A DNA stretch of 63,380 bases from Bacteroidales bacterium UBA1182 (GTDB taxonomy: Bacteria > Bacteroidota > Bacteroidia > Bacteroidales > Bacteroidaceae), in NCBI GenBank assembly GCA_002310015.1, contig DBYQ01000058.1, positions 1 through 63,380 on the forward strand, in the 5' to 3' direction. Position numbers and translations under genes: made by a program. This document shows positions 3,858-50,205 of this stretch, one piece after another. Each line of letters starts with the position of its first letter. Position 1 is the stretch's first letter. Below the pieces are notes generated by a model. The model had not been told where the DNA came from. It worked only from the letters and a program-made list of their open reading frames with translations, and made no database searches.

Positions 3858-3887
3858 GGTACCAAAGGGGTCAGACCCCAATGGTAC
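3858..3887. repeat. single REP unit
   Basis: ggtaccaaaggggtcagaccccaatggtac between convergent serB and the 3887-4639 ORF. The TAG stop of the minus-strand ORF overlaps its flank. Confidence 0.9.
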
Positions 3888-5265: not shown

Positions 5266-5337
5266 ATACAAAAGGGGTCAGACCCCAATTGTATCATTTT
5301 TGAAAATAGTACAATTGGGGTCTGACCCCTTTTGTAC
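5266..5337. repeat. REP doublet immediately upstream of the RAYT-like gene
   Basis: atacaaaaggggtcagaccccaattgtat (5266-5294) and gtacaattggggtctgaccccttttgtac (5309-5337), in inverted orientation. Confidence 0.9.
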
Positions 5338-5353: not shown

Positions 5354-5379
5354 CGATATAATCAATTTGTTTGCAAACC

Positions 5380-6192
5380 ATGGCACGAAAATTAAGATTG
5401 GCCAGCGATTCTGGCATTTACCATGTGATTCTGCGCGGGGTGAACCGGCAGGACATTTTCGAGAACGAGAAAGATTTTCTCAAGTTTTTGAGTCTGATGG
5501 AGCGCTTGGCGTTTCCGGTGGATGAGACTGGGCATCGGGTTCCTCCTTTGCTGGTCATTTACGCTTATTGCCTGATGCCTAATCATGTGCATCTGCTGCT
5601 TAGGGAACAGCCCGGAATGTTGGTATCGGACGCAATAAAGTGGATATCAGGCACTTATGCGGGTTATTTTAATTTAAAGTACGAGCATGTTGGGCACCTT
5701 TTTCAGGACCGTTTCAGGAGTGAGGTGGTGAATGATTGGGAGTATTTTGTGACTTTGTTGCGGTACATTCATCAGAATCCGGTGGCTGGAGGGCTGGCGG
5801 ACAATGTGAGGTATTACAGGTGGAGCAGTTGGCGCGAGTATGATCCGGAGATGGTTTGTGATGTTCCGATATGTGCGACTCAGGCTGTTTTCACTAAGAT
5901 TTCGTTCGATGCGCTGGAGGAATTGGTTGATACGCCGCTGCCAAAAACGCAGAGAATTCTGGATTTTGATAGCGATTCCGGGAGGCGGGTGACCGATGAG
6001 AGGTTGCGTGAGTATATTAAGGCGGAGTTTGGGATTGCGGAAGTGCCTGCTATTCAGCATCTTGAGAAGGAGAAACGGAATGAGATTGTAAAAAAACTGC
6101 TGGAGTTTTGTGGAAATGTGATGCAGATTTCTCGCGTGACCGGTATCAGCCGCGGGGTTATCAGCAGGCTCAATAGAGCAATTGGGGTCTGA
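5380..6192 (+). CDS. IS200-like Y1 (HUH) transposase, REP-associated tyrosine transposase (RAYT)-like, with C-terminal HTH
   Basis: HUH motif in YCLMPNHVHLLL and catalytic Tyr context LLRYIHQNPV. C-terminal NVMQISRVTGISRGVISRL looks like an HTH. No TnpB gene or IS ends seen. The last codons and the stop lie inside a REP unit. Confidence 0.8.
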   Translation: MARKLRLASDSGIYHVILRGVNRQDIFENEKDFLKFLSLMERLAFPVDETGHRVPPLLVIYAYCLMPNHVHLLLREQPGMLVSDAIKWISGTYAGYFNLKYEHVGHLFQDRFRSEVVNDWEYFVTLLRYIHQNPVAGGLADNVRYYRWSSWREYDPEMVCDVPICATQAVFTKISFDALEELVDTPLPKTQRILDFDSDSGRRVTDERLREYIKAEFGIAEVPAIQHLEKEKRNEIVKKLLEFCGNVMQISRVTGISRGVISRLNRAIGV

Positions 6193-6332: not shown

Positions 6333-7355
6333 ATGCTGTTTGAGCCGAACCTGCACACGGTGGTGTGGGGCGGGGAGCGGTTGTGCCGATGGAAGGGGCT
6401 TCCGGAGCAGGACCATGTGGGCGAGAGCTGGGAGGTGAGCGCTGTAGAGAGTTCGCCTTCAGTTGTTGCTAATGGTTCATGGACAGGGAAAACACTTCCG
6501 GAGGTGGTGGCATCGGCCCCAGAGGAGATTCTGGGCAAGGCTGTGGCTAGGCGTTACGGCGGACGGATGCCTCTGCTGGTGAAGTTTATCGACGCACGGA
6601 ATGATCTGAGCATTCAGGTTCACCCCAATGATGAGATGGCTCTGCGCGAGCATAACAAGCTGGGTAAGAGCGAGATGTGGTATGTTTTGGATGCTGAGCC
6701 GGGGGCTTGTATTTATGCTGGTTTCAAGAAGAAGCTTGGGGCCGATGAGTACAAGCGGATGGTGGAGGATGGGACTATCACTGAGGCACTTGCGCGGCAT
6801 GAGGCGCATGCGGGTGATGTTTTTTACATTCCGGCGGGGCGTGTGCATGCCATTTGCTGTGGAATATTATTGGCCGAGATTCAGCAGTCATCGGACGTAA
6901 CTTATAGGATATTTGACTATAACAGGTTGGGGCTGGACGGCAAGCCGCGCGAACTCCATACTGCCTATGCTGCTCAGGCACTTAACTACAAGGTGGAGCG
7001 GAAATACAGGACTGATTATGCGGTGCGGAATGACCGGGCGAACCTGATTATGGAGTCTAAGTTCTTTAGCGCCCGCGTGACGGAGGTGGATCATGAGTTT
7101 CATCGGAATCTGCTTAAATACGACAGTTTTATCATTACGATGTGCCTCAAGGGCGATTGTGTGATTAAGGTGCGTGCTACTGGTGATGAGGTGATTTTGA
7201 AGGAGGGGTTCAGTTGCTTGATTCCGGCGGCGGTTGCGGACTATGATATCAGGCCTGTTGGGGGTTCCTGCAAGGTTTTGGATGCGTTTATTGATAATCA
7301 GCGGGGAGGTTTGATGAATAGGATTCATCGGCTTTTCCACAAGAACAAATATTGA
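6333..7355 (+). CDS. manA: mannose-6-phosphate isomerase, class I
   Basis: GESWEVS, PLLVKFIDARNDLSIQVHPND, GKSEMWYVL, AGRVHAI and SSDVTYRIFDYNR. The start is uncertain: the ATG at 6270 would read through a REP unit in frame. Confidence 0.85.
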   Translation: MLFEPNLHTVVWGGERLCRWKGLPEQDHVGESWEVSAVESSPSVVANGSWTGKTLPEVVASAPEEILGKAVARRYGGRMPLLVKFIDARNDLSIQVHPNDEMALREHNKLGKSEMWYVLDAEPGACIYAGFKKKLGADEYKRMVEDGTITEALARHEAHAGDVFYIPAGRVHAICCGILLAEIQQSSDVTYRIFDYNRLGLDGKPRELHTAYAAQALNYKVERKYRTDYAVRNDRANLIMESKFFSARVTEVDHEFHRNLLKYDSFIITMCLKGDCVIKVRATGDEVILKEGFSCLIPAAVADYDIRPVGGSCKVLDAFIDNQRGGLMNRIHRLFHKNKY

Positions 7356-7466: not shown

Positions 7467-8516
7467 ATGGCAAATCATGTGGTAATTATGGCGGGGGGTA
7501 TCGGGAGTAGATTCTGGCCCCTGAGTACTCCGGAGTTTCCTAAGCAATTTATTGATATTCTGGGTTGTGGACGGTCGCTGATTCAGCTGACTGTGGACCG
7601 GTTCAAGGGTATTTGCCCATCGGAAAACTTTTGGGTGGTGACTAACAAGGATTACGTGGATATTGTTAAGCAGCAGATTCCTGGTATTCCTTTAAAGCAT
7701 ATTTTAGCTGAGCCAGCGGCGCGAAATACGGCTCCGTGCATTGCCTGGGCGTGCTGGAGCATTAAGGAGGAGGATCCTGATGCAAATGTTGTCGTTACTC
7801 CCAGCGATGCGGTTGTAATGAACCCTGAGGAGTTCAGGCGCGTGATATCGGGCGCATTGGAGTTTACATCGGGCCACGACTTTATCGTGACTATCGGAAT
7901 CAAACCGAATAGGCCGGAAACTGGGTATGGTTATGTAAAAACGGTACAAAAGGGGTCTGACCCCAATTGTATCATTTTGGTGGAGGAGTTTAAGGAGAAG
8001 CCGGATCTGGAGACGGCTAAGAGGTATTTGGCGGATGGAAATTACCTTTGGAATGCGGGGATTTTTGTGTGGAATGTGAAGACGATTACCGATTCTATCA
8101 GGGCTTATAAGCCGATTTTGGCGGGGCAGATGGATAAAATGATACAAAAGGGGTCTGACCCCAATTGTACTGTTTTGGAGATTTTCCCGACTTGTGAGAA
8201 GATTTCTATTGACTATGCGGTGATGGAGCCGGCTGCTGCTGAGGGGAAGGTTTATACTTTTCCGGCGGATTTTGGGTGGAGCGATCTGGGGAACTGGCAG
8301 TCGCTGCATGAAAAGTTGCAGAAGGATGCGGATAATAATGCATCGGTGGGTAATGTACATTTCTATGAATCAAGCAATTGCGTGGTTCATGTTGAGGACG
8401 CCAAGAAGGTTGTGATTCAGGGATTGGACGGGTATATTGTATCGGAAAAGGGGGGACAAATTCTGATTTGCAAGCGTAGCGAGGAGCAGCGCATTAAAGA
8501 GTTTGGAGCAAAATGA
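7467..8516 (+). CDS. manC: mannose-1-phosphate guanylyltransferase
   Basis: VIMAGGIGSRFWPLS, ETGYGYV, FKEKPDLETAKRYL and SIDYAVMEP. The ORF contains two REP units in frame. The TGA stop lies in a REP flank. Confidence 0.85.
   Translation: MANHVVIMAGGIGSRFWPLSTPEFPKQFIDILGCGRSLIQLTVDRFKGICPSENFWVVTNKDYVDIVKQQIPGIPLKHILAEPAARNTAPCIAWACWSIKEEDPDANVVVTPSDAVVMNPEEFRRVISGALEFTSGHDFIVTIGIKPNRPETGYGYVKTVQKGSDPNCIILVEEFKEKPDLETAKRYLADGNYLWNAGIFVWNVKTITDSIRAYKPILAGQMDKMIQKGSDPNCTVLEIFPTCEKISIDYAVMEPAAAEGKVYTFPADFGWSDLGNWQSLHEKLQKDADNNASVGNVHFYESSNCVVHVEDAKKVVIQGLDGYIVSEKGGQILICKRSEEQRIKEFGAK
7944..7972. repeat. REP unit inside manC coding sequence
   Basis: gtacaaaaggggtctgaccccaattgtat is identical (29/29) to the intergenic copy at 7417-7445. 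It is translated as VQKGSDPNCI. Confidence 0.9.
8142..8170. repeat. REP unit inside manC coding sequence
   Basis: atacaaaaggggtctgaccccaattgtac with the aaaatg/tgtttt flanks seen at intergenic copies. It is translated as IQKGSDPNCT. Confidence 0.9.
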
Positions 8517-8690
8517 TGCAATTGGGGTCTGACCCCTTTTGCACTTGTCATTTTCAAAAAAAACAGTACAAAAGGGGTCTGACCCCAATTGTATCATTTT
8601 CAAAAAAAAACAGTGCAAAAGGGGTCAGACCCCAATTGCACCAATGGCACATGCAAAAAGAGTACCAAAGGGGTCTGACCCCAATGGTAC
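8517..8690. repeat. cluster of four REP units
   Basis: Units at 8517-8544 (inverted form) and at 8566-8594, 8613-8641 and 8662-8690 (direct form), including GTGC and ACCA variants. Confidence 0.9.
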
Positions 8691-8715
8691 TTTTTTAATT
8701 TTAAATAATTATGAT

Positions 8716-8764: not shown

Positions 8765-11461
8765 ATGAAGAAAATTCTGGCTTGTATTGCATTCTTGCTG
8801 CCGCTGGTGGTTTACTCACAGAGTGCATCGATGATTTCAATGGCTCGCAATGAGCTGCAGAAACGTGGACTTGAAGAGACTGAGGTACGCGCGCGTCTGC
8901 TTGAAAACGGTATTGACGTGGATAATATTCCGCCGACTGAGTATCAGAACTATCAGGGTAGAGTTACGGCTATTATTAACCAGATGCAGGCCGAGAAGGC
9001 TCAGGCTTCATCTAATGCTACTCCTGCGGCCCCGGCCGGTGAGAGTGCCATTGCTGCAGCTGCAAGCGAGGCTCTTACTCCGGAGGATTTCCCGCAGACG
9101 ACTCAAGGTGAGGCTGCCGCAGAGGAGGCTCTTGAGGAGGCTCTCAAAGAGAATCATGTATCACCAACGGCTGGTGATGACATTTACGGCCACTCACTGT
9201 TTACAGGCAAGTCACTGGATGTGTATCGCACTACAGACGGTGCCCAGGCTCCTGAAACCTACGTTATGGGTGAGGGCGATGAGGTGCATATCTCAATATT
9301 CGGTTCGTCACAGACTGAGATTCATCAGCGTATTGGTGCCGATGGTTCAATACAACCTGCTAACAGCTCCAAGATATTCCTTAAGGGTATGACCCTGGAG
9401 CAGGCCCGTCAGGCTATCAGAAGTAAGCTGGCTTCATCTTACTCATTCCGTCCGGACCAGATTGCGGTTACCATTACTACGGCACGTACCGTGATGGTGA
9501 ACATATACGGTGAGGTAGGTGTTCAGGGCGGTTTTACACTCTCAGCACTTAACTCTGCATTCAATGCCCTGGCTGCAGCCGGCGGTCCTACAAGAATAGG
9601 TTCCGTACGTAACGTTCAGTTGAGCCGCGGTGGCAAGACAAGCCGTCTGGACCTGTACAGGTATATGACCAAGCCCGATCCCAATGCACAGTATGACCTG
9701 CAGAACGGTGATGTGCTGTTTGTGCCGGTGGCTGACAACATTGTAACTATTGAGGGTGCAGTAAACCGCCCCATGCGTTATGAGATGGTGGCTGGTGAGA
9801 CTGTAAAGGACCTGATACGCTATGCCGGTGGCGTGACATACAACGTTTATCCTGATTACCTGCAGATAGAGCGCCAGGAGGGCGGTGAGATAAAGATCCT
9901 GGAGTATGAGCTGGATAATGTGCTTTCAGGATCACAGAGGATAGAGCTCAAGAACGGTGATGTGGTAAGGGTACGCACATCGAACAAACCGCTTGAGAAC
10001 TACGTATCAATTAAGGGTGATGTGTTCTACGGAGGCCGATATGCGATTGAGAATAACGGTACCCTGCAGACTCTTATTGAGAAGGCTCAGCCCCGTTACA
10101 CAGCTATGACCGATTTTGTGTTTGTAGAGCGTACACGTCCCGACGAGACTGTTGAGGTGCTCACCATACCGTTCCCCGGCGTAAACGGCAATCCGGATTT
10201 TGAACTGCAGCCAAGAGATGCAGTGCTTGTTAAGGAGCAGTCAACATACCGTGACCTGGCAACAATCTCGGTAAGCGGTCAGGTGCGTGAACCTTTCTCA
10301 CGTCAGTTTGGTGTGAATGACAGGATGACAGTGGAGCAGGCTATAGGTTATGCAGGCGGTCTTAAGCCCAGTGTATTCCCTGTAGCTTACATATTCCGCC
10401 GTGACCTGACCAATCCCTCAAAACAGGAGTACCTGCGTATATTGCTGGATAGGGATGGCGATACCCTGCTGCAGCCCGGTGACCAGTTGAAAATATATGA
10501 CAACACCACTTATACAAACGTAGGTGAAGTCCGCGTGAGCGGTGCCGTAAAAAACCCGTTTGGAGTAGAGTTTGACAAGTCACTGACAGTGCATGACATG
10601 CTTGAGATGGCAGGCGGATTAGAGGTAGGTGCAGCATACGACCGCGTTGAGGTGTTCCGTATCAACATCTCTACAAAGGATGAGGTTAAACTTGACCAGA
10701 TTACCCTGACTGTTGATGACCAGTACAATCTGGTGGGTAACTCAGAATTCCAGTTGCAGCCGTATGACCATATAGTTGTACGCCGTACTCCTAACTTTAC
10801 CATGGGACGAACGGTTGAGGTTAACGGCCGCGTAAAATATCCGGGTGTATATGTACTGGAGGATAATAAAACACAGTTGTGGGAGATTATCCAGATGGCA
10901 GGCGGCCTGCTTGATGATGCAGCCCCGTATGCACGCCTGTTCCGTACTTATCGTAACCGCGGTAGTATAGGACTGGACCTTAGGGAGGTGAAGAGTAACA
11001 AGGGAAGACTCAAGTCTGACCCCATACTGATGGATGGTGACGTAATCAACATAACACGTATGGAGAACGTTGTTTCAATACGTGAGACCGGAACCAGAAT
11101 GGCTCAGTATGTACCTGAGGAGTATGCATCAAGCCAAAAGACAATCCTGTTCCAGGGTAAGCACAATGCCGCCTGGTATATACGCCATTATGCCGGCGGA
11201 TTCCAGAAGGCTGCCGATAAGAACAGCGTTACGGTTACGTACCCCAACAACCAGACAGAATCAACCAAACGCGGATTCCTTTGGATACGCCGTTATCCTA
11301 AAGTTGAATCAGGCGGTATGATTACACTGCGCATTGATGATGAGAAACGTGAGAAGATAGAGAAGCCTAAGGAGAAGATTGACTGGGGTGATGAACTGAG
11401 AACATCTCTCAGTACACTCACATCGGTTATATCATTGGTAATTCTTATTGACAAACTGTAG
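8765..11461 (+). CDS. large polysaccharide export protein with multiple SLBB-type repeats
   Basis: Signal peptide followed by a repeated G-D-x-(I/V/L)-x-V pattern (GDEVHISIFG, NGDVLFVPV, NGDVVRVR, PGDQLKIY, DGDVINI), as in Wza/SLBB export proteins. 898 aa. Confidence 0.7.
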   Translation: MKKILACIAFLLPLVVYSQSASMISMARNELQKRGLEETEVRARLLENGIDVDNIPPTEYQNYQGRVTAIINQMQAEKAQASSNATPAAPAGESAIAAAASEALTPEDFPQTTQGEAAAEEALEEALKENHVSPTAGDDIYGHSLFTGKSLDVYRTTDGAQAPETYVMGEGDEVHISIFGSSQTEIHQRIGADGSIQPANSSKIFLKGMTLEQARQAIRSKLASSYSFRPDQIAVTITTARTVMVNIYGEVGVQGGFTLSALNSAFNALAAAGGPTRIGSVRNVQLSRGGKTSRLDLYRYMTKPDPNAQYDLQNGDVLFVPVADNIVTIEGAVNRPMRYEMVAGETVKDLIRYAGGVTYNVYPDYLQIERQEGGEIKILEYELDNVLSGSQRIELKNGDVVRVRTSNKPLENYVSIKGDVFYGGRYAIENNGTLQTLIEKAQPRYTAMTDFVFVERTRPDETVEVLTIPFPGVNGNPDFELQPRDAVLVKEQSTYRDLATISVSGQVREPFSRQFGVNDRMTVEQAIGYAGGLKPSVFPVAYIFRRDLTNPSKQEYLRILLDRDGDTLLQPGDQLKIYDNTTYTNVGEVRVSGAVKNPFGVEFDKSLTVHDMLEMAGGLEVGAAYDRVEVFRINISTKDEVKLDQITLTVDDQYNLVGNSEFQLQPYDHIVVRRTPNFTMGRTVEVNGRVKYPGVYVLEDNKTQLWEIIQMAGGLLDDAAPYARLFRTYRNRGSIGLDLREVKSNKGRLKSDPILMDGDVINITRMENVVSIRETGTRMAQYVPEEYASSQKTILFQGKHNAAWYIRHYAGGFQKAADKNSVTVTYPNNQTESTKRGFLWIRRYPKVESGGMITLRIDDEKREKIEKPKEKIDWGDELRTSLSTLTSVISLVILIDKL

Positions 11462-11465
11462 TAAT

Positions 11466-12626
11466 ATGGACGAGAATATGAACAATGCGCCTATGACGGA
11501 TGAAGGGGAGGGTATAGATATAATGGTGCTGGTAAAACAGCTATGGGACGGCCGTAAGACTGTAATAATCTGGACCTGTGTGTTCATGGCGTTAGGCCTG
11601 ATAGCCGCATTTACCATGATTCGTAAATACGAGGTGAGTACTGTAATGGTTCCCCAGCTGAACTCCAAGCAAAACGCATCATTGAGCAGTCTGGCATCAC
11701 TTGCGGGATTTGACTTGAGTACGGTCAATACGGGTAGTGAGCTATCGCCGCTTATCTATCCGCAGATTGTGGGCAGCGTTACTTTCATGAAAGAACTGAT
11801 GTACACTCCGCTTCATTATGCTAAGTGTGATACCGCTATCTGCATGTTTGATTATGCGCAGAGTGATTATGCCAAGCCTTCAGTGGTAGGTGCTATATTT
11901 GGAGGTTTAATAAAATATACCATCGGATTGCCGCGTGTGATCCTTAAAGCTATTAGAGGAGAGAAAGAGCCTATAGTATTACCTGAAGGTGAAGGTACGG
12001 CCGATAATACCCCCAAGCCAGTGGTTATAAGTGAGGATGAGGAGGAGATCCTTAAGGAACTTGCAGAAAATGTTTCACTTGCAGTTGATAAGAAAGAAGG
12101 TTATATCACTCTGAATGTAATAGGTTCAGAGCCTATACAGGCTGCGGAACTGGCCATGAAGGCGCAGCAACTGCTTCAGGAGGAACTTACACGTTTCCGT
12201 ATTGAGAAATCAGAAAGTGAGCTGGAATATATCCAGGCCCGTTATAATGAGATAAAATCGGAGACTGAGTCATATCAGGAGCAACTGGCCAGGATTACAG
12301 ACCGTTCACAAAGTGTGACCAATACACGTGACCGCATTGAGCGTGACCGCATCCAGACCAAGTACTCTATCTCAAGTTCCATTTACAGTGAACTGGCCAA
12401 GCAGTTGGAGCAGGCCAAGATGCAGGTTAAGAAGGATACTCCTGTGTTTACTGTAATCCAGCCTATTACTGTTCCTAATAAGCCTTCAAACAGCCGTGCA
12501 AAGACTCTTATCATATGGACGTTCTTTGGCGTGGTTTTGGGCTGTGGCGTGGTTCTGGGGAAGGAGTATTTGCCTAAGCTTTTGGCTCAGTTTAAAGACG
12601 AGGAGGAGGAAAAGATTGAAAATTGA
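11466..12626 (+). CDS. Wzz-like chain-length determinant protein (no kinase domain)
   Basis: N-terminal IDIMVLVKQLWDGRKTVII plus a TM segment, a coiled-coil middle and a C-terminal TM segment. The final residues KIEN and the stop are encoded by a heptamer array. Confidence 0.7.
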   Translation: MDENMNNAPMTDEGEGIDIMVLVKQLWDGRKTVIIWTCVFMALGLIAAFTMIRKYEVSTVMVPQLNSKQNASLSSLASLAGFDLSTVNTGSELSPLIYPQIVGSVTFMKELMYTPLHYAKCDTAICMFDYAQSDYAKPSVVGAIFGGLIKYTIGLPRVILKAIRGEKEPIVLPEGEGTADNTPKPVVISEDEEEILKELAENVSLAVDKKEGYITLNVIGSEPIQAAELAMKAQQLLQEELTRFRIEKSESELEYIQARYNEIKSETESYQEQLARITDRSQSVTNTRDRIERDRIQTKYSISSSIYSELAKQLEQAKMQVKKDTPVFTVIQPITVPNKPSNSRAKTLIIWTFFGVVLGCGVVLGKEYLPKLLAQFKDEEEEKIEN

Positions 12627-12835
12627 AAATTGAAAATTGAAAATTATAAAAAAGGTTCGGAAATTTTCCGAACCTTTTTTAATGTCGCGGGAATTAAAGC
12701 AGGTGTTTTTTTACGCAGGTGCTTGTAATTTTCAATTTTCAATTTTCAATTATGTAACTTCGTTCCATGATTTTTGTCACGACTCGGTCAAACAAGCAAG
12801 CTTGATGACTCTCGCTGCTCCAAAAATTTTCAATT
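12615..12835. repeat. heptamer-armed cassette H1 (module A plus module B)
   Basis: (ATTGAAA)x4 at 12615-12645, then a terminator hairpin, then the AATGTCGCGGG and TTACGCAGGTGC boxes, then (TTTTCAA)x3 at 12727-12751. Module B (cgttccatgatttttgtcacgactcgg...ctgctccaaaaattttcaatt) runs to 12835. Confidence 0.9.
12648..12680. terminator. bidirectional rho-independent terminator hairpin (cassette core)
   Basis: aaaaaaggttcggaaattttccgaacctttttt: an A-tract, a 9-bp stem and a T-tract, between convergent genes. Confidence 0.7.
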
Positions 12836-15394: not shown

Positions 15395-15954
15395 AATTGA
15401 AAATTGAAAATTGAAAATTGAAATTTTTTATCATGAGAGACAATGTTTTACATAGTAAAAGCAGAGATTTTGCTATACGCATTATTAACTGTTACAAATA
15501 TCTGAATAGTGAAAAACAGGAATATATCATGTCTAAACAACTTCTACGTTGTGGGACAAGTATTGGAGCTAATACTATAGAAAGTAAGAACGCTCAAAGT
15601 CGTCCTGATTTTCTAAGTAAACTCAATATTGCATTGAAGGAGGCCGATGAAACCAGTTACTGGTTGGACCTCCTTCATGTTTGCAATTATATTAATGACG
15701 AATCTTTCAACTCATTAGATAAGGATTGTCGTGAAATAATCGGTTTATTAACTACAATCATCAAAAGACTAAAACAATCAACTTTCTAATTTTCAATTAA
15801 CAACTTCGTTGTTGATTTTTGTCGCGTTCAATGGTCTTTACACCCCCTTCGTTTCCCCCGTTATCGGGGGACAGAAACGGGATAGCCCAAGCGAGCTTAG
15901 TCTCTCCTCTCACTGCTCCAAAAATTTTCAATTTTCAATTTTCAATTTTCAATT
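15395..15954. mobile_element. heptamer-armed cassette H2 carrying a four-helix-bundle gene plus module B
   Basis: (TTGAAAA)x4 at 15395-15425, the CDS at 15433-15789, an internal aattttcaatt at 15788-15798, module B with an extra insert, and (TTTTCAA)x4 ending at 15954. Same layout as H1, with the ORF in place of the terminator module. Confidence 0.6.
15433..15789 (+). CDS. four-helix-bundle protein (23S rRNA intervening-sequence protein / Avd-like family)
   Basis: SRDFAIRIINCYKYL, QLLRCGTSIGANTIES and ALKEADETSYWLDLL are characteristic of the four-helix-bundle S23p family. The DNA is markedly AT-rich. Confidence 0.8.
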   Translation: MRDNVLHSKSRDFAIRIINCYKYLNSEKQEYIMSKQLLRCGTSIGANTIESKNAQSRPDFLSKLNIALKEADETSYWLDLLHVCNYINDESFNSLDKDCREIIGLLTTIIKRLKQSTF

Positions 15955-18009: not shown

Positions 18010-18927
18010 ATGCCTCTCAAACTGCCCGATAAACTGCCTGCAATAGAGATTCTTAAGGGGGAGAACATCTTTGTGATGGACACCTCAAGGGCATCGCATC
18101 AGGATATACGTCCGTTGCGTATTGTCATCTTGAACCTGATGCCCATAAAGATTACGACAGAGACAGACCTGATACGTCTGCTCTCAAATACGCCTTTGCA
18201 GATTGAGCTTAAGCTGATGAAACTGCGCAGTCATACATCGAAAAACACCCCCGTGGAGCATATGAGGGTGTTTTATCAGACGTTTGAGAGCTTACGTGAT
18301 GAGAAATTTGACGGCTTTATCATAACCGGAGCTCCGGTGGAGCATATGGAGTTTACGGATGTGGAGTACTGGAATGAGCTGACCGAGATTATGGATTGGG
18401 CCAGGACTCATGTGACATCGACCCTGTATATTTGTTGGGCCGCGCTTGCCGGACTGTATCATTTTTACGGAGTGCCCAAGTATCAGCTCAAGAACAAGAT
18501 GTTCGGTATTTTCAAGCACAATACCACCCGTGAGCCGCTGCCTATCTTCCGCGGTTTTGATGATGAGTTCTATGCTCCTCACAGCCGTCATTCTGAGCTG
18601 CGTCGTGATGATATTCTGAGCCATCCTGACCTCAAGCTGCTCTCTGAGTCCGATGAGGCCGGGGTGTTCATGGTATCGGCACGTAATGGTCGTGAGATTT
18701 TCATTACCGGTCACTTTGAGTACTCTCCTGATACTCTTGACAAGGAGTACAAGCGTGACTTGGATAAGGGGCTTCCGATAGATATTCCCAAGCACTATTA
18801 CCGGGGCGATGATCCGTCTCAGGGGCCTTTGGACCGGTGGCGGGCTCATGCCAATCTGTTCTATCAGAATTGGCTTAATTATTATGTTTATCAGGAGACT
18901 CCGTATAACCTTCAGGACATTAGGTAA
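18010..18927 (+). CDS. metA: homoserine O-acyltransferase (MetA family)
   Basis: MPLKLPDKLPAIEIL, LRIVILNLMP, FDGFIITGAPVE and ICWAA match the MetA family. Confidence 0.85.
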   Translation: MPLKLPDKLPAIEILKGENIFVMDTSRASHQDIRPLRIVILNLMPIKITTETDLIRLLSNTPLQIELKLMKLRSHTSKNTPVEHMRVFYQTFESLRDEKFDGFIITGAPVEHMEFTDVEYWNELTEIMDWARTHVTSTLYICWAALAGLYHFYGVPKYQLKNKMFGIFKHNTTREPLPIFRGFDDEFYAPHSRHSELRRDDILSHPDLKLLSESDEAGVFMVSARNGREIFITGHFEYSPDTLDKEYKRDLDKGLPIDIPKHYYRGDDPSQGPLDRWRAHANLFYQNWLNYYVYQETPYNLQDIR

Positions 18928-19100
18928 ATTGAAAATTGAGAATTGAAAATTGAGAATTGAAAATTGAAAATTGAAAATTGTAAAAAGCCTTCGAAATGGA
19001 TTTCGAAGGCTTTTTAATGTCGCGGGCTATTACGCAGATATTTGTAACGCAGGTGCTTGTTAATTTTCAATTTTCAATTTTCAATTCTCAATTTTCAATT
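18927..19100. repeat. heptamer-armed cassette H3 (module A)
   Basis: Eight TTGA(A/G)AA units at 18927-18979, a hairpin, the AATGTCGCGGG box, two ACGCAG(G/A)T boxes, and TTTTCAA/TTCTCAA units at 19062-19100. Confidence 0.9.
18982..19015. terminator. bidirectional terminator hairpin (cassette core)
   Basis: aaaaagccttcgaaatggatttcgaaggcttttt. The stem sequence differs from the other cassettes but keeps the same architecture. Confidence 0.65.
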
Positions 19101-19141
19101 TATACTTATAATTCAGTATTGATAATGCAGGGGATTGGTTG

Positions 19142-19168: not shown

Positions 19169-21598
19169 ATGACTCTGAGGGAACTTAAGATAGGTGAGAG
19201 TGCTGTGATTGCCTCGGTTGGAGGTGAGGGGGCACTGAGGCAGCATTTTCTGGATATGGGGTTGCTGCCGGGCGTGGAGGTTAAGCTTTTGAAGTTTGCT
19301 CCGATGGGTGATCCGATGGAGCTTCTGGTTCGCGGATACACTCTTTCTCTCCGTCTTGAAGAAGCATCTCAAATTACAGTTGACGCACCGGATGGCAGCC
19401 AACAGCCCGAAAAAACAGTACCAAAGGGGTCTGACCCCAATGGTACTGTTTTTGAAAAAAAGGTACCATTGGGGTCAGACCCCTTTGGTACTGTTTTGGT
19501 CGATTTTGGGTATAATTTGTCTTTGCATGAGCATAACTCTCATCCGGGTTTGGGTGAGGCTGGTAAGTATCATGATGCTACTCATGAGAATGCGGTTCCT
19601 AAGGGTACGGTGTTGAGGTTTGCTTTGGCCGGTCAGCAGAATTGCGGCAAGACTACCTTGTTTAATCAGCTTACGGGTTCTAATCAGCATGTGGGTAATT
19701 TCCCGGGTGTGACTGTAGATAGAAAGGATGGGCAGATTAAGGGGCATCCGGATACTCTTGTCACAGACTTACCTGGTATATATTCTTTATCGCCTTACAC
19801 GCAGGAGGAGACGGTTTCACGCCAGTTCATTATTGAGCAGAAGCCTAACTGCATTATCAATATCGTCGATGCTACAAACATTGAACGCAACCTGTATCTG
19901 ACGGTTCAGCTCATGGAGCTGGGTGTGCCTATGGTGCTGGCTCTCAATATGATGGACGAGCTGACGGGTAATGGCGGATCGGTCCGCGTGAATGAGATGG
20001 AGCGAATCCTGGGTATTCCGGTGGTTCCGATATCGGCCGCAAAGGGCGAGGGTATCAAGGAGCTTGTGGAGCACGCCATTCATGTGGCTGAGTATCAGGA
20101 GGTTCCGGCCAGGACCGATTTCTGCACAAAGGATGATCACGGGGGTGCTGTTCACCGTTGCCTGCACAGCATAATGCATCTGGTTGAGGACCACACCGAA
20201 AGGGCTGGCATTCCGGGCCGATTCGCAGCCGGCAAGCTTGCTGAGGGCGATGCTCAAGTGCTTGAACAGCTACAACTTACACAGAACGAGAAAGAAACGA
20301 TGGAACACATAATCCTGCAGATGGAGGAGGAGCGTGGGATGGACCGCGCGGCTGCCATTGCAGATATGCGTTTCTCGTTTATTGAGCGCCTTTGCTCGCA
20401 GACGGTTGTCAAGCCGCAGAAGAGCAAAGAGTATATAAGGAGTCGCCGCATTGACCGCGTTCTGACCGGCCGATGGACAGCAATTCCAATCTTCCTGATA
20501 GTGATGTGCCTGGTGATATGGCTCTCAATCGATGTGTTGGGTGCACCGCTGCAGGATTGGCTTGACCAGCTGATTCAGGGCCTGGCAGGCATCTGTGTGG
20601 CTGGTATGGAGAAGGCCGATATTTCACCTGCAATCATATCGCTTGTTGAGGATGGCATTTTTGGCGGCGTGGGAAGCGTGCTGAGCTTTGTGCCTATCAT
20701 CATAATCCTGTTCTTCTTCCTTAGTCTGATTGAGGACAGCGGATATATGGCACGTATCGCGTTTGTGACCGATAAGCTGCTGCGTAAACTGGGTCTGTCG
20801 GGTCGTTCTATCGTGCCGTTGCTCATCGGCTTTGGCTGTTCTGTTCCGGCGGTTATGGCCACTAGAACGTTGCCATCGGCCCGTGACAGAAAGATGACCA
20901 TTCTGCTCACTCCGTTTATGAGCTGCAGCGCCAAGATTCCTATTTACGGATTCTTTACCAATGCGTTTTTCCCGGGCAAGGGCGGTCTGATTCTGGCCGG
21001 CTTGTACCTGCTGTCGATATTTGTAGGCGTGATTGTGGCGCTGGTGACCAAACTTTTCCGCAAGAATTACGTGGCTGCGCCGTTTGTGATGGAGCTGCCC
21101 AATTACCGCATGCCGGGACTCAAGAATGTGAGCCATCTGCTTTGGGACAAGACGAAGGACTTTGTGCAGAGGGCGTTCACGGTGATATTCGTGGCGACGA
21201 TCGTGATTTGGCTGCTGCAGACGTTTGATTTCCGATTCAATATGGTGGAGAACGGCGAGGGTAGCATGATGGCCTGGGTTGCTGGCGTGCTGGAGCCGCT
21301 GTTCCGTCCGCTGGGCCTTGGCGATTGGCGCATTGTTACCTCTTTTGTAAGCGGTTTCCTGGCTAAGGAGAGCGTGGTTGCTACGATGGAGGTGCTTGGC
21401 GTGACCGAGTCGCTGACTGTTATTACCGCTGTTCCGATGCTCATATTTAGCCTGCTCTACACGCCTTGCGTTGCTGCAATCAGCAGCGTTCGCCGCGAAC
21501 TTGGTGACAGGTGGGCAATCTATGTCGTAATCTTCCAGTGCGTCATCGCCTGGGTTGTGGCTTGGTTTGGTTATTTAATAGCACAGGCAGTATTATGA
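19169..21598 (+). CDS. feoB: ferrous iron transporter, FeoA-FeoB fusion
   Basis: The N-terminal FeoA domain ends ...LRLEEASQITV. FeoB G-domain LAGQQNCGKTTLFNQLTG and NFPGVTVD, followed by the polytopic membrane part. A REP doublet sits in frame in the linker. Confidence 0.9.
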   Translation: MTLRELKIGESAVIASVGGEGALRQHFLDMGLLPGVEVKLLKFAPMGDPMELLVRGYTLSLRLEEASQITVDAPDGSQQPEKTVPKGSDPNGTVFEKKVPLGSDPFGTVLVDFGYNLSLHEHNSHPGLGEAGKYHDATHENAVPKGTVLRFALAGQQNCGKTTLFNQLTGSNQHVGNFPGVTVDRKDGQIKGHPDTLVTDLPGIYSLSPYTQEETVSRQFIIEQKPNCIINIVDATNIERNLYLTVQLMELGVPMVLALNMMDELTGNGGSVRVNEMERILGIPVVPISAAKGEGIKELVEHAIHVAEYQEVPARTDFCTKDDHGGAVHRCLHSIMHLVEDHTERAGIPGRFAAGKLAEGDAQVLEQLQLTQNEKETMEHIILQMEEERGMDRAAAIADMRFSFIERLCSQTVVKPQKSKEYIRSRRIDRVLTGRWTAIPIFLIVMCLVIWLSIDVLGAPLQDWLDQLIQGLAGICVAGMEKADISPAIISLVEDGIFGGVGSVLSFVPIIIILFFFLSLIEDSGYMARIAFVTDKLLRKLGLSGRSIVPLLIGFGCSVPAVMATRTLPSARDRKMTILLTPFMSCSAKIPIYGFFTNAFFPGKGGLILAGLYLLSIFVGVIVALVTKLFRKNYVAAPFVMELPNYRMPGLKNVSHLLWDKTKDFVQRAFTVIFVATIVIWLLQTFDFRFNMVENGEGSMMAWVAGVLEPLFRPLGLGDWRIVTSFVSGFLAKESVVATMEVLGVTESLTVITAVPMLIFSLLYTPCVAAISSVRRELGDRWAIYVVIFQCVIAWVVAWFGYLIAQAVL
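19418..19491. repeat. REP doublet inside the feoAB coding sequence
   Basis: gtaccaaaggggtctgaccccaatggtac (19418-19446) and gtaccattggggtcagacccctttggtac (19463-19491). Translated as VPKGSDPNGTVFEKKVPLGSDPFGTV. Confidence 0.9.
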
Positions 21599-21732
21599 AC
21601 GCCGCAACCATAATAGCAATCATCGCCATAACAGGACTGGTCGTAGTCGCTGTCATCGGCGCAATAAACAATCGCAAGAAGGGAAACTCCTGCTGCGGCT
21701 GCTCTATGAAAGATTGCTGCAACAAGAAATGA
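21595..21732 (+). CDS. FeoB-associated Cys-rich membrane protein
   Basis: 45 aa: one TM helix, then KKGNSCCGCSMKDCCNKK. Its ATG overlaps the feoB TGA (ATGA). Its stop lies in a REP flank. Confidence 0.65.
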   Translation: MNAATIIAIIAITGLVVVAVIGAINNRKKGNSCCGCSMKDCCNKK

Positions 21733-21805
21733 TACAAAAGGGGTCAGACCCCAATTGCATCATTTTTGAAAAATAGTGCAATTGGGGTCTGACCCCTTTT
21801 GTATC
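21732..21805. repeat. REP doublet between convergent genes
   Basis: atacaaaaggggtcagaccccaattgcat (21732-21760) and gtgcaattggggtctgaccccttttgtat (21777-21805). Confidence 0.9.
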
Positions 21806-23187
21806 ATTTCTTCAACATCATCAGGATGGTAAGGGATAATATTTGCACCTAGGACGCGGTTGGCGGTGGGGGTGATTAGGATGTCGTCTTCTATTCGGAT
21901 TCCTCCGAAATCTATGTAGTTTTCTATTGCTTGGTAATTCATGAAGTCTTTGTGCATATGTTCTGCGCGCCATTTGTCTATCAGGGCGGGGATGAAGTAG
22001 ATGCCGGGCTCATCGGTTAGGACGAAGCCGGGCTGGAGGCGCTTGCCGTAGCGGAGGCAGTTGGTTCCGAACTGATTAGAGGGCTGGACTTCTTCATCAA
22101 AGCCTACGTAGTTCTGGCCCAGGGCTTCCATATCGTGTACGTCCATGCCCATCATGTGGCCAAGGCCGTGCTGCATGAAGAGGGCGTGTGCTCCGGCGGC
22201 GACGGCGTCATCAGTATTGCCGCGCATGAGGCCCAGGTCCTTGAGGCGGTCAGTCATGAGGCGGCAGACGTCCAGGTGCATGTCTAGCCATCGCATGCCG
22301 GGATGGGCTTTCTCGATGACGAGGTCATGACACGCCTCTACGATGGAGTAGATATCCAGCTGCTTGCTGGTGAACTTACCGCTGACGGGCATGGTTCGGG
22401 TGTTGTCACTGCAGTAGTTGTTGACGGTTTCGGCGCCGGCATCAACCAGGAGGAGGCGTCCAGGCTCAAGAGGCTTCATAGAGGGGCCACCATGAAAGAT
22501 CTCGCCGTGCATGGTTACTATGCTGTTGAACGATACTTTGGCTCCCTGGCCCATGGCAATGCCCTCCATAATACCTGCAATTGATTTCTCAGTCACGCCA
22601 GGGCGGCAGTGTTTCATGGCGGCGCAGTGCATCTGGTAACCTATGGCCATAGCGCGCTCAATCTCTGCAACCTCACCATCGGATTTTATGGAGCGCATGC
22701 TTACAACGGCCTTGATAAGTTCTACCGATGCGGCATCGCGGGTTTGGAGCGGGTGGATGCCTAGCATATCGGACAAGAGGATCATGTGGTCATGACGGTA
22801 GGGGGGCAGGAAGTGTATTTTACGGCCCAGGCGACGGGCATCGGCCACCAGATCCTTTAGTTTGCTGTATGGGGCACTGTTCTGTATGCCGCAATCAGCA
22901 GCCATATCTGCAACGGAGGGTACGAATCCGGTCCAGATGATATCATCGAGGTCAATATCATCACCCAGAAGCCATTCCTGACCGCTGTCGGCATCGATTA
23001 CTGCGGCAAGTGATTCGCGCTGCTGACCTGTAAAATAGAGGAATGTGCTGTCCTGACGGAAGGTGTAGGCGTTTGAGGGGTAGTTGCATGGAGCGTCATT
23101 GTTACCAAGCAGGATAATTAGGCCATTGCCAATTTTCTCTCTCAGAACGCTGCGGCGATGAGAATATGTTTTCTTATCAAATAGCAT
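21760..23187 (-). CDS. Xaa-Pro aminopeptidase (aminopeptidase P, M24B)
   Basis: HGLGHMMGMDVHD, EPGIYF and GGIRIEDD metal-ligand blocks. The C-terminal [17 protein letters not shown] is encoded by the REP doublet. Confidence 0.85.
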   Translation of the reverse strand: MLFDKKTYSHRRSVLREKIGNGLIILLGNNDAPCNYPSNAYTFRQDSTFLYFTGQQRESLAAVIDADSGQEWLLGDDIDLDDIIWTGFVPSVADMAADCGIQNSAPYSKLKDLVADARRLGRKIHFLPPYRHDHMILLSDMLGIHPLQTRDAASVELIKAVVSMRSIKSDGEVAEIERAMAIGYQMHCAAMKHCRPGVTEKSIAGIMEGIAMGQGAKVSFNSIVTMHGEIFHGGPSMKPLEPGRLLLVDAGAETVNNYCSDNTRTMPVSGKFTSKQLDIYSIVEACHDLVIEKAHPGMRWLDMHLDVCRLMTDRLKDLGLMRGNTDDAVAAGAHALFMQHGLGHMMGMDVHDMEALGQNYVGFDEEVQPSNQFGTNCLRYGKRLQPGFVLTDEPGIYFIPALIDKWRAEHMHKDFMNYQAIENYIDFGGIRIEDDILITPTANRVLGANIIPYHPDDVEEMIQKGSDPNCTIFQK

Positions 23188-24223: not shown

Positions 24224-24329
24224 ATTGAAAATTTTTGGAGCAGTGAGAGCCATCAAGCTTGCTTGTTTGGCCGAGTCGCGACAAAAATCAACAACGAAGT
24301 TGTTAATTGAAAATTGAAAATTGAAAATT
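24223..24329. repeat. heptamer-flanked cassette H4 (module B only)
   Basis: aattgaaaatttttggagcagtgagagccatcaagcttgcttgtttggccgagtcgcgacaaaaatcaacaacgaagttgttaattgaaaattgaaaattgaaaatt. It is the reverse complement of the module B seen in H1. Confidence 0.9.
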
Positions 24330-24460
24330 AGGCGCTTCGCTTGGTGAAAGCGTCCCTTCGGGCCGAGTGGAAAATTTGTATATTGGGGTTTTAACTTTGG
24401 GGATTAAACCTTATATATGTAGAAAGAATCAAATTATAAACCTTAAATACAATTAAGCAA

Positions 24461-25437: not shown

Positions 25438-25582
25438 AATTGAGAATTGAAAATTGAAAATTGAAAATTACATGCACTTGCGTAAAAAGCACCTGCGTTA
25501 ATTCCCGCGACATTAAGAAAGGGTTCGGAGACTTCCGAACCCTTTCTTATAATTTTCAATTTTCAATTCTCAATTTTCAATT
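25438..25582. repeat. heptamer-armed cassette H5 (module A, inverted relative to H1)
   Basis: Left arm aattgagaattgaaaattgaaaattgaaaatt, then gcacctgcgtta and cccgcgacatt boxes, a hairpin, and right arm aattttcaattttcaattctcaattttcaatt. Confidence 0.9.
25515..25548. terminator. bidirectional terminator hairpin (cassette core)
   Basis: aagaaagggttcggagacttccgaaccctttctt between convergent genes. Confidence 0.6.
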
Positions 25583-33515: not shown

Positions 33516-33546
33516 GAATTAAGAATTGAAAATTGAAAATTGAAAT
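33514..33546. repeat. solo heptamer array H6
   Basis: aagaattaagaattgaaaattgaaaattgaaat directly after the C11 stop, with no internal module. Confidence 0.85.
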
Positions 33547-42371: not shown

Positions 42372-42400
42372 GTACAAAAGGGGTCAGACCCCAATTGTAT
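42372..42400. repeat. single REP unit
   Basis: gtacaaaaggggtcagaccccaattgtat between the acyl-CoA ligase stop and the thioesterase start. The ligase TGA stop lies in its tcatttt flank. Confidence 0.9.
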
Positions 42401-50096: not shown

Positions 50097-50205
50097 GAAT
50101 TGAAAATTATAAAAAAGGTTCGGAAAACTCCGAACCTTTTTTAATGTCGCGGGTTATTACGCAGGTGCTTGTTAATTTTCAATTTTCAATTTTCAATTCT
50201 CAATT
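50091..50205. repeat. heptamer-armed cassette H8 (module A)
   Basis: aattgagaattgaaaatt, a hairpin, AATGTCGCGGG, TTACGCAGGTGCTTGTT, then aattttcaattttcaattttcaattctcaatt. Confidence 0.9.
50111..50142. terminator. bidirectional terminator hairpin (cassette core)
   Basis: aaaaaaggttcggaaaactccgaacctttttt between convergent genes. Confidence 0.7.

Follow-up and report, generated by a model that had tools for sequence, protein, structure and literature searches.

A REP doublet in frame in the FeoA–FeoB linker of a rumen Bacteroidales, probably a tolerated passenger

Bacterial REPs are extragenic by name, and REPs that are translated have been described chiefly in Rickettsia and in a few Proteobacteria and Verrucomicrobia. 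The locus considered here—within a stretch of 63,380 nt from an uncultured rumen Bacteroidales, which whole stretch we call the window—raises the question of how a complete REP doublet comes to lie inside the reading frame of feoAB, and whether it has a function of its own in that position.

The doublet in the FeoA–FeoB linker

The host gene is an intact fusion ORF on the plus strand (19169..21598; 809 aa), recognized in the ORF list, by Pfam and by the NCBIfam feoB model, which scores the protein at 558 bits against a cut-off of 316. Five Pfam domains, all above their cut-offs, follow one another in the order FeoA (PF04023), FeoB_N (PF02421), FeoB_Cyto (PF17910), Gate (PF07670), and FeoB_C (PF07664); and a single polypeptide thereby carries the N-terminal FeoA, the G domain, the helical (GDI) domain, and the Gate/FeoB_C membrane domain by which FeoAB is defined. 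The FeoA domain occupies residues 1–72 (19169..19384, plus strand; E = 2.8e-20; AlphaFold pLDDT ~86) and the G domain residues 150–302 (19616..20074, plus strand; E = 1.5e-64), and the element therefore falls in the inter-domain linker, where a sequence-only reading of this DNA had placed it. AlphaFold gives residues 77–134 a pLDDT below 50—about 30—and no secondary structure, the flanking domains being at 82–90. Across homologues the linker measures 35–77 aa. The FeoAB of Bacteroides fragilis, with the same domain order, tethers FeoA to the FeoB G domain by a linker of ~35–44 aa, which was found by experiment to be flexible and protease-labile and through which an interaction of FeoA with NFeoB has been documented (Sestok et al., 2022, PMC8980893); that linker, however, has no reported repeat element, whereas the linker in the window carries 26 additional REP-encoded codons. 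The small Cys-rich ORF that follows feoAB matched nothing in the NCBIfam scan.

Repeat and translation analysis resolves the element into two units: unit 1 (AAAACAGTACCAAAGGGGTCTGACCCCAATGGTACTGTTTT; 19412..19452, plus strand), read as KTVPKGSDPNGTVF, and unit 2 (AAAAAGGTACCATTGGGGTCAGACCCCTTTGGTACTGTTTT; 19457..19497, plus strand), inverted with respect to the first and read as KKVPLGSDPFGTVL. Either unit alone is an imperfect palindrome, and the doublet as a whole consists of two 42-nt arms (19412–19453 and 19456–19497), 95% complementary and separated by a spacer of 2 nt, so that the earlier description of a complete inverted doublet (a REPIN) holds in all its structural statements. Because the direct-repeat period, that is, the centre-to-centre spacing, is 45 nt, the two units share one frame. 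ORF list and translation alike pass through the element with neither stop nor frameshift—the read-through within the 809-codon frame had been asserted, and the misreading that it might have concealed is not there—and the element-encoded residues 82–110, E81-KTVPKGSDPNGTVFEKKVPLGSDPFGTVL-V111, agree exactly with the peptide given by the sequence-only reading. The peptide KGSDPNGTVFEK is a stretch of the same FeoAB. Four of the six frames are open in the feoAB copy, with its 45-nt spacing, compared with none to two of the six in the intergenic doublets, whose units are mostly 43–44 nt apart, which difference we read as a filter for an open frame.

When folded as RNA, positions 19400–19510 reach −74.8 kcal/mol, against −29.8 ± 3.8 kcal/mol for shuffled sequences (z = −11.9), and the whole linker −84 to −90 kcal/mol in the window and in L162, a related strain considered below. 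The strong hairpin that had been proposed is thus predicted to be very stable indeed; its length of ~70 nt, on the other hand, had been put too low, the span found being ~86–100 nt. No terminator-like site was called between 19300 and 19600.

The REP family of the window and its known counterparts

The core GGGTCTGACCCC, at one mismatch or fewer, gives 51 strand-hits in the 63-kb window, where 0.19 would be expected by chance. These resolve into 28 REP units, 23 of which are not wholly within genes while ~92% of the window is coding; and seven of nine doublets are inverted, as judged by the AAA/AAT versus ATT/TTT asymmetry. The unit is 41 nt long, with 81% of its cells paired as opposed to 35–51% when the partner is slid, and the stem pair 11–31 covaries (AU in 18, CG in 8, never unpaired). 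Columns 13–14 and 28–29 are unpaired within the unit in 24 of 26 rows, yet at these columns each unit of a doublet is complementary to the other, which pattern matches the expectation for a REPIN. The consensus AAAATAGTACAAAAGGGGTCTGACCCCAATTGTATCATTTT has the ends AAAAT[AG][AG]TAC ... GTA[CT][CT]ATTTT, and neither end contains a GTAG or CGTC tag, which places the family outside both superfamilies of Di Nocera et al. (2013, PMC3733652). The feoAB element is accordingly a member of a real REP/REPIN family: a short imperfect palindrome in high copy in the window, chiefly extragenic, that forms inverted doublets with a short spacer and is polymorphic for presence, the feoAB and feoAB–pepP doublets being found in both the window and L162 and absent from the syntenic relative L001. 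An Rfam scan of the whole window matched no family, and the literature on the core sequence and on Prevotella REPs yielded nothing specific. At the protein level, a homologue search with a 47-aa synthetic concatenation of the REP-encoded peptide gave no candidate; a phmmer search of 1.84 billion representatives with the 34-aa peptide of the window returned only 11 matches, ten of them proteins of 495–3075 aa at 39–47% identity (nine matched at several stretches) and the remaining one a 35-aa ORF at 79% identity that appears to be REP-derived itself.

A Y1 (HuH) transposase is encoded at 5371..6192 on the plus strand (273 aa; Pfam Y1_Tnp, E = 1e-12), and its translation contains the motifs NHVH, FQ, and YIHQNP. 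REP units flank it, with centres at 5280 and 5323 upstream and at 6190, 6235, and 6302 downstream, and the last codons together with the stop sit inside a unit. The best NCBIfam match, REP_Tyr_transpos, scores 53 bits, under the 80-bit cut-off, and a PDB sequence search with the protein had no match. To judge from its adjacency and its motifs, the protein is probably the RAYT of the window family. The family has entered other genes of the window as well: two single units in frame in a manC-like gene (7467..8516), at 7938..7978 (KTVQKGSDPNCIIL) and at 8136..8176, both on the plus strand, fall where the Thermotoga maritima enzyme 2x5s aligns with gaps of only 2–3 residues; and a doublet at 21726..21810 overlies the 3′ end of pepP (21760..23187, minus strand), the native C-terminus of which, ...DVEAFMS*, is replaced by a REP-encoded end, down to a stop codon supplied by the REP.

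In-frame intragenic REPs are already known, from the Rickettsia RPEs and from the REPs with GTAG or CGTC tags. Among the latter, in-frame dimers encode 20–30 aa, and the resemblance to the window family extends to short palindromic units, often dimeric, in frame in intact genes, to units at the ends of ORFs, and to families tied to tyrosine (RAYT) transposases (PMC3733652). The window units differ in lacking either tag and in their host, a rumen Bacteroidales; furthermore, repair and replication genes are emphasized there, whereas here it is the FeoA–FeoB tether that has been struck repeatedly across species. The Rickettsia RPEs (Ogata et al., 2000), as portrayed in the later accounts PMC3733652 and PMC10969869, are likewise selfish palindromes in frame in many unrelated genes, their added peptide judged compatible with the fold and the host proteins functional; RPE-1, the best known of them, is longer (~100–150 bp), and the hosts are obligate intracellular Alphaproteobacteria. 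What those accounts say of the RPEs cites no RAYT link, and we set the two apart by length and host only. As expected of in-frame intragenic palindromic repeats, the feoAB copy combines an ORF that is intact on either side, a location in a linker, and purifying selection on the host gene.

With the REPIN–RAYT systems of Pseudomonas and the Enterobacteria (Bertels and Rainey, 2011, PMC3116915; Quentin et al., 2018, PMC6006769) the window family shares inverted doublets that give a long hairpin, a large and mostly extragenic population with a family proper to each genome, and a Y1 transposase bordered by REPs and bearing HuH and Y motifs, of which the 63-kb window holds one copy. By its motifs alone, the transposase fits the class-2 TnpAREP proteins (2.1 or 2.6, the latter rich in Bacteroidetes), its NCBIfam score lying below the RAYT cut-off. 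Classical REPINs are defined as extragenic, however, whereas several copies in the window lie in a reading frame and are predicted to be translated.

The same linker in related genomes

Seven species-level relatives were compared, of which L001 is the closest (syntenic, with DNA identities of 89.7% in feoB and 96.5% in feoA). No unit of the window family occurs in its 22 kb, and its feoAB has no element, but a linker that is both different and shorter, contrary to what would be found if the sequence had been present in REP-less relatives all along. The comparison of linker lengths suggested by the sequence-only reading thus identifies the doublet as an insertion relative to L001: in the DNA alignment, the extra segment 19413..19498 (plus strand) sets 86 nt opposite the 8 nt TCGACCAA, for a net gain of 78 nt, or 26 codons. 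In L001 and L003 a native palindrome of 11 bp, CCGAAATCGAC-N3-GTCGATTTCGG, has its top at this site, the "empty" hairpin of L001 being CCGAAATCGACCAAGTTGATTTCGG; this palindrome was considered as a member of the repeat family and rejected, since it is unique to the site. By this alignment the element is an insertion, and the ancestral site of the window lineage would have been empty, as in L001. The insertion is shared, junctions included, by L162, a strain known from an independent metagenome contig at ~93–97% DNA identity; the L162 protein (P0253), on record on a second contig too, is identical to the window FeoAB at 805 of 809 residues.

None of 120 cluster representatives had a REP peptide in the linker. 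Among close relatives, by contrast with a one-off insertion—which idea we rejected, since REPs recur there—12 of 34 distinct linkers contain peptides derived from REPs, which fall into five or more classes by junction or frame, and the other 22 have no recognizable REP. The orthologues accordingly range from linkers without a REP to a single unit, doublets of other families, a unit in another frame, and copies decayed or deleted. In each of the four doublet-bearing relatives that were checked (L002, L083, L005, and L163), the doublet belongs to the REP family of its own genome, as with the GGGGACGGTTCC family of L005, of which at least eight doublets lie in 22 kb; and the predicted linker hairpins amount to −55 kcal/mol in L002, −70 in L005, −53 in L083, and −68 in L163. 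Junctions are identical in L002, L083, and L026, whose copies are of the GGGGTCWGACCCC family, and in L005, whose doublet is of the GGGGACGGTTCC family. L026 has undergone an in-frame 21-nt deletion, through which the long hairpin is lost (MFE −26.9), and its feoA and feoB are still constrained. The unit of L165/P0261 is read as CKRGQTPF instead of KGSDPNG, so that the GSDP frame is not the only one ever used, and the linkers of L082 and P0270 resemble decayed units. Throughout, the total linker stays at 37–62 aa, with native residues lost alongside the insertions. Nor did we retain a single ancient insertion as the source of all the copies, since junctions, frames, and families differ and the left flank in the window is L001-like.

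The domains on either side are under strong purifying selection. For the feoAB of the window, dN/dS against relatives is 0.02–0.05, with 0.02 for feoB and 0.05 for feoA in the comparison with L001, and across all pairs, for feoA and feoB, it lies at 0.02–0.12, including pairs of REP-bearing orthologues (dS 0.24–0.72).

Readings of the element and what they imply

We consider it probable—at roughly three chances in four—that the element is a selfish REPIN whose presence is tolerated by a disordered and permissive linker, without a demonstrated function of its own. It belongs to the REPIN family resident in this genome, with its two units inverted so as to form one long hairpin; it was presumably mobilized by the REP-flanked Y1/RAYT-type transposase at 5371–6192, and it would have landed in the tether that joins FeoA to the G domain of FeoB, a variable and disordered stretch. 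There the insertion would have survived because whole codons were added (86 nt in, 8 nt out), because the frame used contains no stop, and because the resulting peptide, rich in Gly, Pro, Ser, Asp, and Asn, is flexible. In related rumen Bacteroidales the same tether would have been struck repeatedly, its copies being replaced, trimmed, or left to decay into ordinary-looking linker. In favour of this reading are family membership, insertion in frame, absence from L001, the repeated events in relatives, the constraint that both neighbouring domains show, and the disorder predicted for the linker, together with the family's entry into other genes of the window, by two in-frame units in manC and a rewritten end of pepP. 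The insertion would then be nearly neutral, and the repeated use of the tether might reflect either permissiveness or a target preference. Nevertheless, junctions that are identical across families (L002 and L083 versus L005), together with doublets that persist over dS ~0.5–0.7, could indicate that the structure is retained for a reason, and the element may have a lineage-specific effect on expression.

A bolder extension, which we put forward tentatively and would not expect to prevail, is that the FeoA–FeoB tether and the two manC loops are intragenic "landing pads", where the resident REPIN family of each genome strikes or overwrites the same nucleotide junctions again and again. The junctions shared by L002, L083, L026, and L005 point in this direction, as does the native 11-bp palindrome at the site in L001 and L003; and the two manC sites have the same core variant within a protein in 14 of 27 instances, against 6.1 by shuffling, which excess, significant by that test, is confounded by shared ancestry. 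If the proposal were true, the RAYT machinery would integrate in a site-directed manner, or carry out gene conversion, at coding sites prone to form hairpins, and rumen Bacteroidales would go on drawing sequence for inter-domain linkers and for loops from their REPINs.

The hairpin might, alternatively, be regulatory, in RNA or DNA: a ribosome pause between the domains, an attenuator under slow translation, or a point where RNases enter or stop, so that FeoA and FeoB would be expressed independently. In E. coli, REPs stabilize the mRNA that lies upstream of them and, close to stop codons, can influence translation. In the linker the predicted stability is very high, several species carry strong-hairpin doublets, and the arms in four relatives remain complementary while each doublet follows the family of its host genome. 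Against these points stand the many close orthologues that lack a REP altogether or carry only one short unit or a copy in decay; the constraint on feoA and feoB in L026 after the loss of its long hairpin; and the want of a terminator-like call inside the element. An attenuator, terminator, or processing hairpin would be expected to show a stem with a U-tract, conserved among orthologues, whereas this hairpin is absent, different, or deleted in most of them. Furthermore, since the element has no stop codon, a cut message would yield a non-stop FeoA fragment; and the same family occurs in the manC loops and at the pepP end without a common regulatory logic. We regard a regulatory role as unlikely, and the coupling or processing function that the sequence-only reading had envisaged is not borne out by the comparison, in which orthologues show every state of the linker while both domains are equally constrained. 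That reading had also passed over the recurrence among relatives, the family's presence in manC and at the end of pepP, and the probable transposase in the window.

Less likely still is an exapted peptide, according to which the REP-encoded tether, rich in Gly, Pro, Ser, Asp, and Asn, was selected for being longer or more flexible and aids the docking of FeoA on the GTP-bound G domain; REPs would then be a source of linker material under selection. In about one-third of the clade's distinct linkers a REP origin is plain to see, in some from seemingly decayed units (L082 and P0270); the total held at 37–62 aa despite insertions is compatible with a constraint on length; and contact through a flexible linker is documented in B. 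fragilis (PMC8980893). The peptide sequence is not conserved from one event to the next, however, neither frame nor family being the same; linkers without a REP are just as frequent among orthologues under the same constraint; and the embedded copies are palindromic at the DNA level, which selection on the protein would not need. Finally, that the element is an assembly artefact, or feoAB a recent pseudogene still looking open, we consider very improbable, since—although REPs are prone to collapse in short-read assemblies and no protein on record matches the 809 aa of the window exactly—the insertion and its junctions recur in L162, from another sample, with the protein on a second contig, the ORF is intact over 2.4 kb, dN/dS against L001 is low, and REP-bearing orthologues are constrained at dS ~0.5–0.7.

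With the element thus read as a tolerated REPIN, the locus adds to the known in-frame repeats an abundant and previously undescribed REP/REPIN family of uncultured rumen Bacteroidales, one that has been repeatedly written into proteins: the FeoAB tether, the manC loops, and the C-terminus of pepP. The related genomes offer, within one essential-type transporter, a natural series that runs from empty and filled sites to replaced and decayed ones and is useful for the study of how REPINs choose their targets, how long in-gene copies persist, and what a very stable hairpin in a coding region costs. For annotation, short KGSDPNG-like segments in such genomes should be taken as repeat-derived. For the biology of Feo, the tether between FeoA and FeoB would appear, from these linker comparisons, to accommodate 26 or more additional residues, flexible and of arbitrary sequence.

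The feoAB doublet and its REP family

Positions 19409-19501 read GAAAAAACAGTACCAAAGGGGTCTGACCCCAATGGTACTGTTTTTGAAAAAAAGGTACCATTGGGGTCAGACCCCTTTGGTACTGTTTTGGTC, a stretch in which the repeat finder delimited two arms of 42 nt each (19412-19453 and 19456-19497), 95% complementary and separated by a 2-nt gap, both arms being individually imperfect palindromes with a direct period of 45 nt. The whole doublet lies within an 809-aa ORF (19169..21598, + strand) free of stops and frameshifts, and encodes E81-KTVPKGSDPNGTVFEKKVPLGSDPFGTVL-V111 between the Pfam domains FeoA (aa 1-72) and FeoB_N (aa 150-302), the latter being followed by FeoB_Cyto, Gate, and FeoB_C; the product matched the NCBIfam feoB model with 558 bits. 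The repeat finder, the ORF, and the Pfam domains bear out the sequence-only reading, which had described two inverted units read in frame in the FeoA-FeoB linker. The strong RNA hairpin postulated there was also predicted when 19400-19510 was folded as RNA, with an energy of -74.8 kcal/mol where shuffled sequences gave -29.8 +/- 3.8 (z = -11.9), although it is somewhat longer than had been proposed.

The doublet belongs to a genuine REP/REPIN family. With at most one mismatch, the core GGGTCTGACCCC gave 51 strand-hits in the window against 0.19 expected, which hits correspond to 28 REP units, whose alignment over 41 nt yielded the consensus AAAATAGTACAAAAGGGGTCTGACCCCAATTGTATCATTTT. Under a palindrome model of the units 81% of the cells were paired, versus 35-51% with the partner slid; the pair 11-31 was AU in 18 rows, CG in 8, and unpaired in none, while columns 13-14 and 28-29 were unpaired in 24 of 26 rows. 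The units are oriented because of the asymmetry AAA...AAT versus ATT...TTT, and seven of the nine doublets in the window are inverted; in these, positions mismatched within a unit are complementary across the two units, which is the REPIN architecture. Though some 92% of the window is ORF, 23 of the 28 units are not wholly intragenic, and five reach exactly 7 nt into a gene at its 3' end (1043-1049, 3887-3893, 8510-8516, 21760-21766, and 42400-42406), the A-rich flank (AAAATGA or AAAATAG) supplying or abutting the stop codon. The unit consensus has neither GTAG nor CGTC, the tags that mark the two large superfamilies of REPs (PMC3733652). At 8510-8696 a four-unit cluster with 47-50 nt spacing occupies the gap between manC and a Wza-like polysaccharide export gene.

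The ORF at 5371-6192 (+ strand) encodes a Y1/HuH transposase (Pfam Y1_Tnp, E = 1e-12), whose NHVH and YIHQNP motifs agree with the class-2 TnpAREP/RAYT subclasses (Quentin et al., 2018; PMC6006769), of which subclass 2.6 is found mostly in Bacteroidetes (PMC6006769). Its best NCBIfam match was REP_Tyr_transpos, at 53 bits versus a cut-off of 80, and units surround it, centred at 5280 and 5323 upstream and at 6190, 6235, and 6302 downstream. Judged by its motifs and the adjoining units, this protein is probably the RAYT of the window REP family. The 3' end of the ORF, stop and final codons included, is part of a REP unit, and a C-terminal extension of about 120 aa follows the Y1_Tnp domain.

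Occupation of the tether in relatives

The closest cluster representatives retrieved by protein search are FeoAB fusions of 785-797 aa; among 120 such representatives the linker measures 35-77 aa, and none carries a REP-like linker peptide. Among seven species-level relatives compared, the closest was L001, which is syntenic with the window (HTS-feoAB-pepP) and matches its DNA at 89.7% identity for feoB and 96.5% for feoA. Its linker reads ...GGCAGCCAACAGCCAACAGCTAACAGCCAACAGCCCGAAATCGACCAAGTTGATTTCGG..., versus ...GGCAGCCAACAGCCCGAAA[86 nt]GTCGATTTTGG... in the window, the 86 nt taking the place of TCGACCAA and lengthening the gene by 78 nt (26 codons) net; with a 21-nt tandem duplication that has one less copy in the window, this explains the protein lengths of 809 aa in the window and 790 aa in L001. 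No window-family REP unit was found within 22 kb in L001. At 10259-10286 in both L001 and a further relative, L003, a native 11-bp palindrome, CCGAAATCGAC-N3-GTCGATTTCGG, encodes PEIDQVDFG. The insertion point of the window doublet corresponds to the apex of this palindrome, which is orthologous to 19406-19509 and present as a single copy unique to the linker site, and which may have been the target structure for the insertion. A cluster look-up returned a protein of 809 aa identical to the window FeoAB at 805 of 809 positions (P0253), whose contig (L162), from a different sample, is 93-97% identical to the window in DNA and has the same insertion junctions; the insertion is therefore real and inherited across strain-level divergence.

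We pooled relatives, mostly MAG contigs, from a genome scan (whose matches were MAGs from the rumen, named Bacteroidaceae, Bacteroidales or Prevotellaceae bacterium), one metagenome scan, and cluster members. Relatives with a G-domain identity of 88% or more supplied 34 distinct linkers, of which 12 contain recognisable REP-derived peptides; by their DNA these make up no fewer than five classes. Class A comprises the window and L162; class B (L002, P0268, L083, L026, and L005), with the identical junctions AAGATn[A/G]AAATG and GATTTTGG, has a doublet in place of the entire variable segment; class C (L163/P0265) has a doublet followed by AAPDVDFGYN; class D (L164/P0263) has one short unit, with L082 and P0270 resembling decayed forms of it; and class E (L165/P0261, with P0262 and P0267 similar) has one unit read in a different frame (CKRGQTPFAH). 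Since the feoB sequences relate to one another in a star-like pattern and show signs of recombination, we counted independent events from the junctions and not from a tree. The insertions coincide with loss of native residues, so that the total linker stays at 37-62 aa.

In all four doublet-bearing relatives checked, the linker doublet is of the genome's own family: in L002 and L083 this is the GGGGTCWGACCCC family, present both in the linker and in the flanks, and in L005 and L163 another, with the core GGGGACGGTTCC, of which L005 has at least eight doublets in 22 kb, including the linker copy at 10217-10281. Directly downstream of pepP in L002, the stretch 6412-6472 (ggacattggggacggttctttttggcac...) is of the GGGGACGGTTC-type family of L005, so that L002 holds two REP families.

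Other in-frame copies and neighbouring elements

Being read in frame is habitual for the window REP family, which besides feoAB has such copies in manC and pepP. The manC-like gene at 7467..8516, for a GDP-mannose pyrophosphorylase (Pfam NTP_transferase; T. maritima 2x5s, E = 5e-63), contains two in-frame single units, 7938-7978 and 8136-8176, encoding KTVQKGSDPNCIIL and a 14-residue peptide. Among 94 homologues parsed, a REP-like peptide occurs at site 1 in 36 and at site 2 in 46, with core variants including GSDP, GSVP, GTDP, GTVP, GPDP, and GPAP; other homologues have short native loops there. The two sites bear the same variant within a protein in 14 of 27 cases versus 6.1 by shuffling, a comparison confounded by shared ancestry. 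The variants trace compensatory stem steps, TC/GA to AC/GT through mismatched intermediates (GGGGTCTGTCCCC, GGGGACAGACCCC), which are also present among the window's own units.

At the 3' end of pepP (Xaa-Pro aminopeptidase; 21760-23187, - strand) a doublet at 21726-21810 replaces the last four codons and adds 15 residues; a different ending, given as 19 residues, stands in place of ...DVEAFMS*, the stop codon coming from the second unit. The pepP product of L001 and L002 ends in ...DVEAF(M/I)S*, and that of L162 is a 463-aa protein with the doublet just past its stop. About 200 nt of intergenic DNA downstream of feoAB, kept in L001, are replaced by the doublet in the window.

A small ORF overlapping the feoAB stop codon (21511/21595-21732, + strand) encodes a hydrophobic segment and a Cys-rich tail (...NSCCGCSMKDCCNKK); conserved in L001 and L162 and without a match in NCBIfam, it may specify a FeoB-associated small membrane protein. 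A second abundant repeat of the window consists of tandem heptamers, (AATTGAA/AATTGAG)n, with 41 pattern matches versus 0.01 expected, in arrays at 12614-12751, 15395-15954, 18926-19101, 24305-24331, 25438-25582, 33517-33543, 50172-50205, and 58296-58436. These arrays often form inverted pairs at gene ends, with some 60-100 nt between them; upstream of feoAB such a pair flanks a terminator-like hairpin (18984-19015), while the pair at 15395-15954 is about 500 nt apart with a small ORF between (15433-15789, + strand), which may be the cargo of a heptamer-array element. Its counterpart in L162 (6385-6756) carries the annotation PF05635 (23S_rRNA_IVP, a family of four-helix bundles), and L002 has a comparable small ORF (10-366) immediately upstream of feoAB. 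A short heptamer run lies upstream of feoAB in L002, and the REP doublet of L162 follows one such array.

Constraint, probable tolerance, and the linker hairpin

Between the window and L001, dN/dS was 0.021 for feoB and 0.051 for feoA, and REP-bearing orthologue pairs gave 0.03-0.12 at dS 0.24-0.72; by all the tests available, feoAB appears to remain functional. AlphaFold, run with a 50-sequence alignment, folded FeoA and the G domain confidently and left residues 77-134 without secondary structure and with pLDDT values under 50 (about 28-33 by block), so that the REP-encoded residues 82-110 fall in a predicted disordered tether. This prediction agrees with experiments on B. fragilis FeoAB, in which the linker of 35-44 aa is flexible and protease-labile and the GTP-bound G domain is the docking partner of FeoA (PMC8980893). 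The feoAB doublet has a spacing of 45 nt and is open in four of six frames, versus mostly 43-44 nt and zero to two of six frames in the small sample of intergenic doublets; within that sample, these features are what a survival filter would leave.

The sequence-only reading had proposed that the hairpin could affect translation coupling or provide a site for processing that separates FeoA from FeoB. Such a regulatory role in the window lineage, whether as pause, attenuation or processing, is disfavoured: orthologues occur in every site state with both domains equally constrained; L026, which equals L083 less 21 nt of unit 1, removed in frame, has lost the long hairpin (MFE -26.9, versus -53 to -90 in intact copies); no terminator-like signal was called in the feoAB element; and a cleaved message would have no stop codon. 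The best-supported explanation is a selfish REPIN, which would be moved by the resident Y1/RAYT-type transposase—we infer the ORF at 5371-6192—and tolerated as a nearly neutral element where the protein accommodates a flexible Gly/Pro/Ser/Asp/Asn-rich stretch, in-gene copies being filtered by length and open frame; such tolerance may be why the linker is a hot spot.

Di Nocera et al. (2013; PMC3733652) compiled a catalogue of intact genes with REP dimers that are in frame and encode 20-30 aa, the Rickettsia RPEs are the classic case of in-frame palindromic repeats (PMC3733652, PMC10969869), and Pseudomonas and Enterobacteria have well-characterised REPIN-RAYT systems (PMC3116915); an in-frame REP doublet such as that in feoAB is therefore a known type of phenomenon. 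No mention of the window REP core was found in the literature searched, and what is new here is a REP family without the GTAG/CGTC tag, the host clade, and the target. Added interest lies in the recurrent occupation, by multiple families, of one inter-domain tether and two manC loops.
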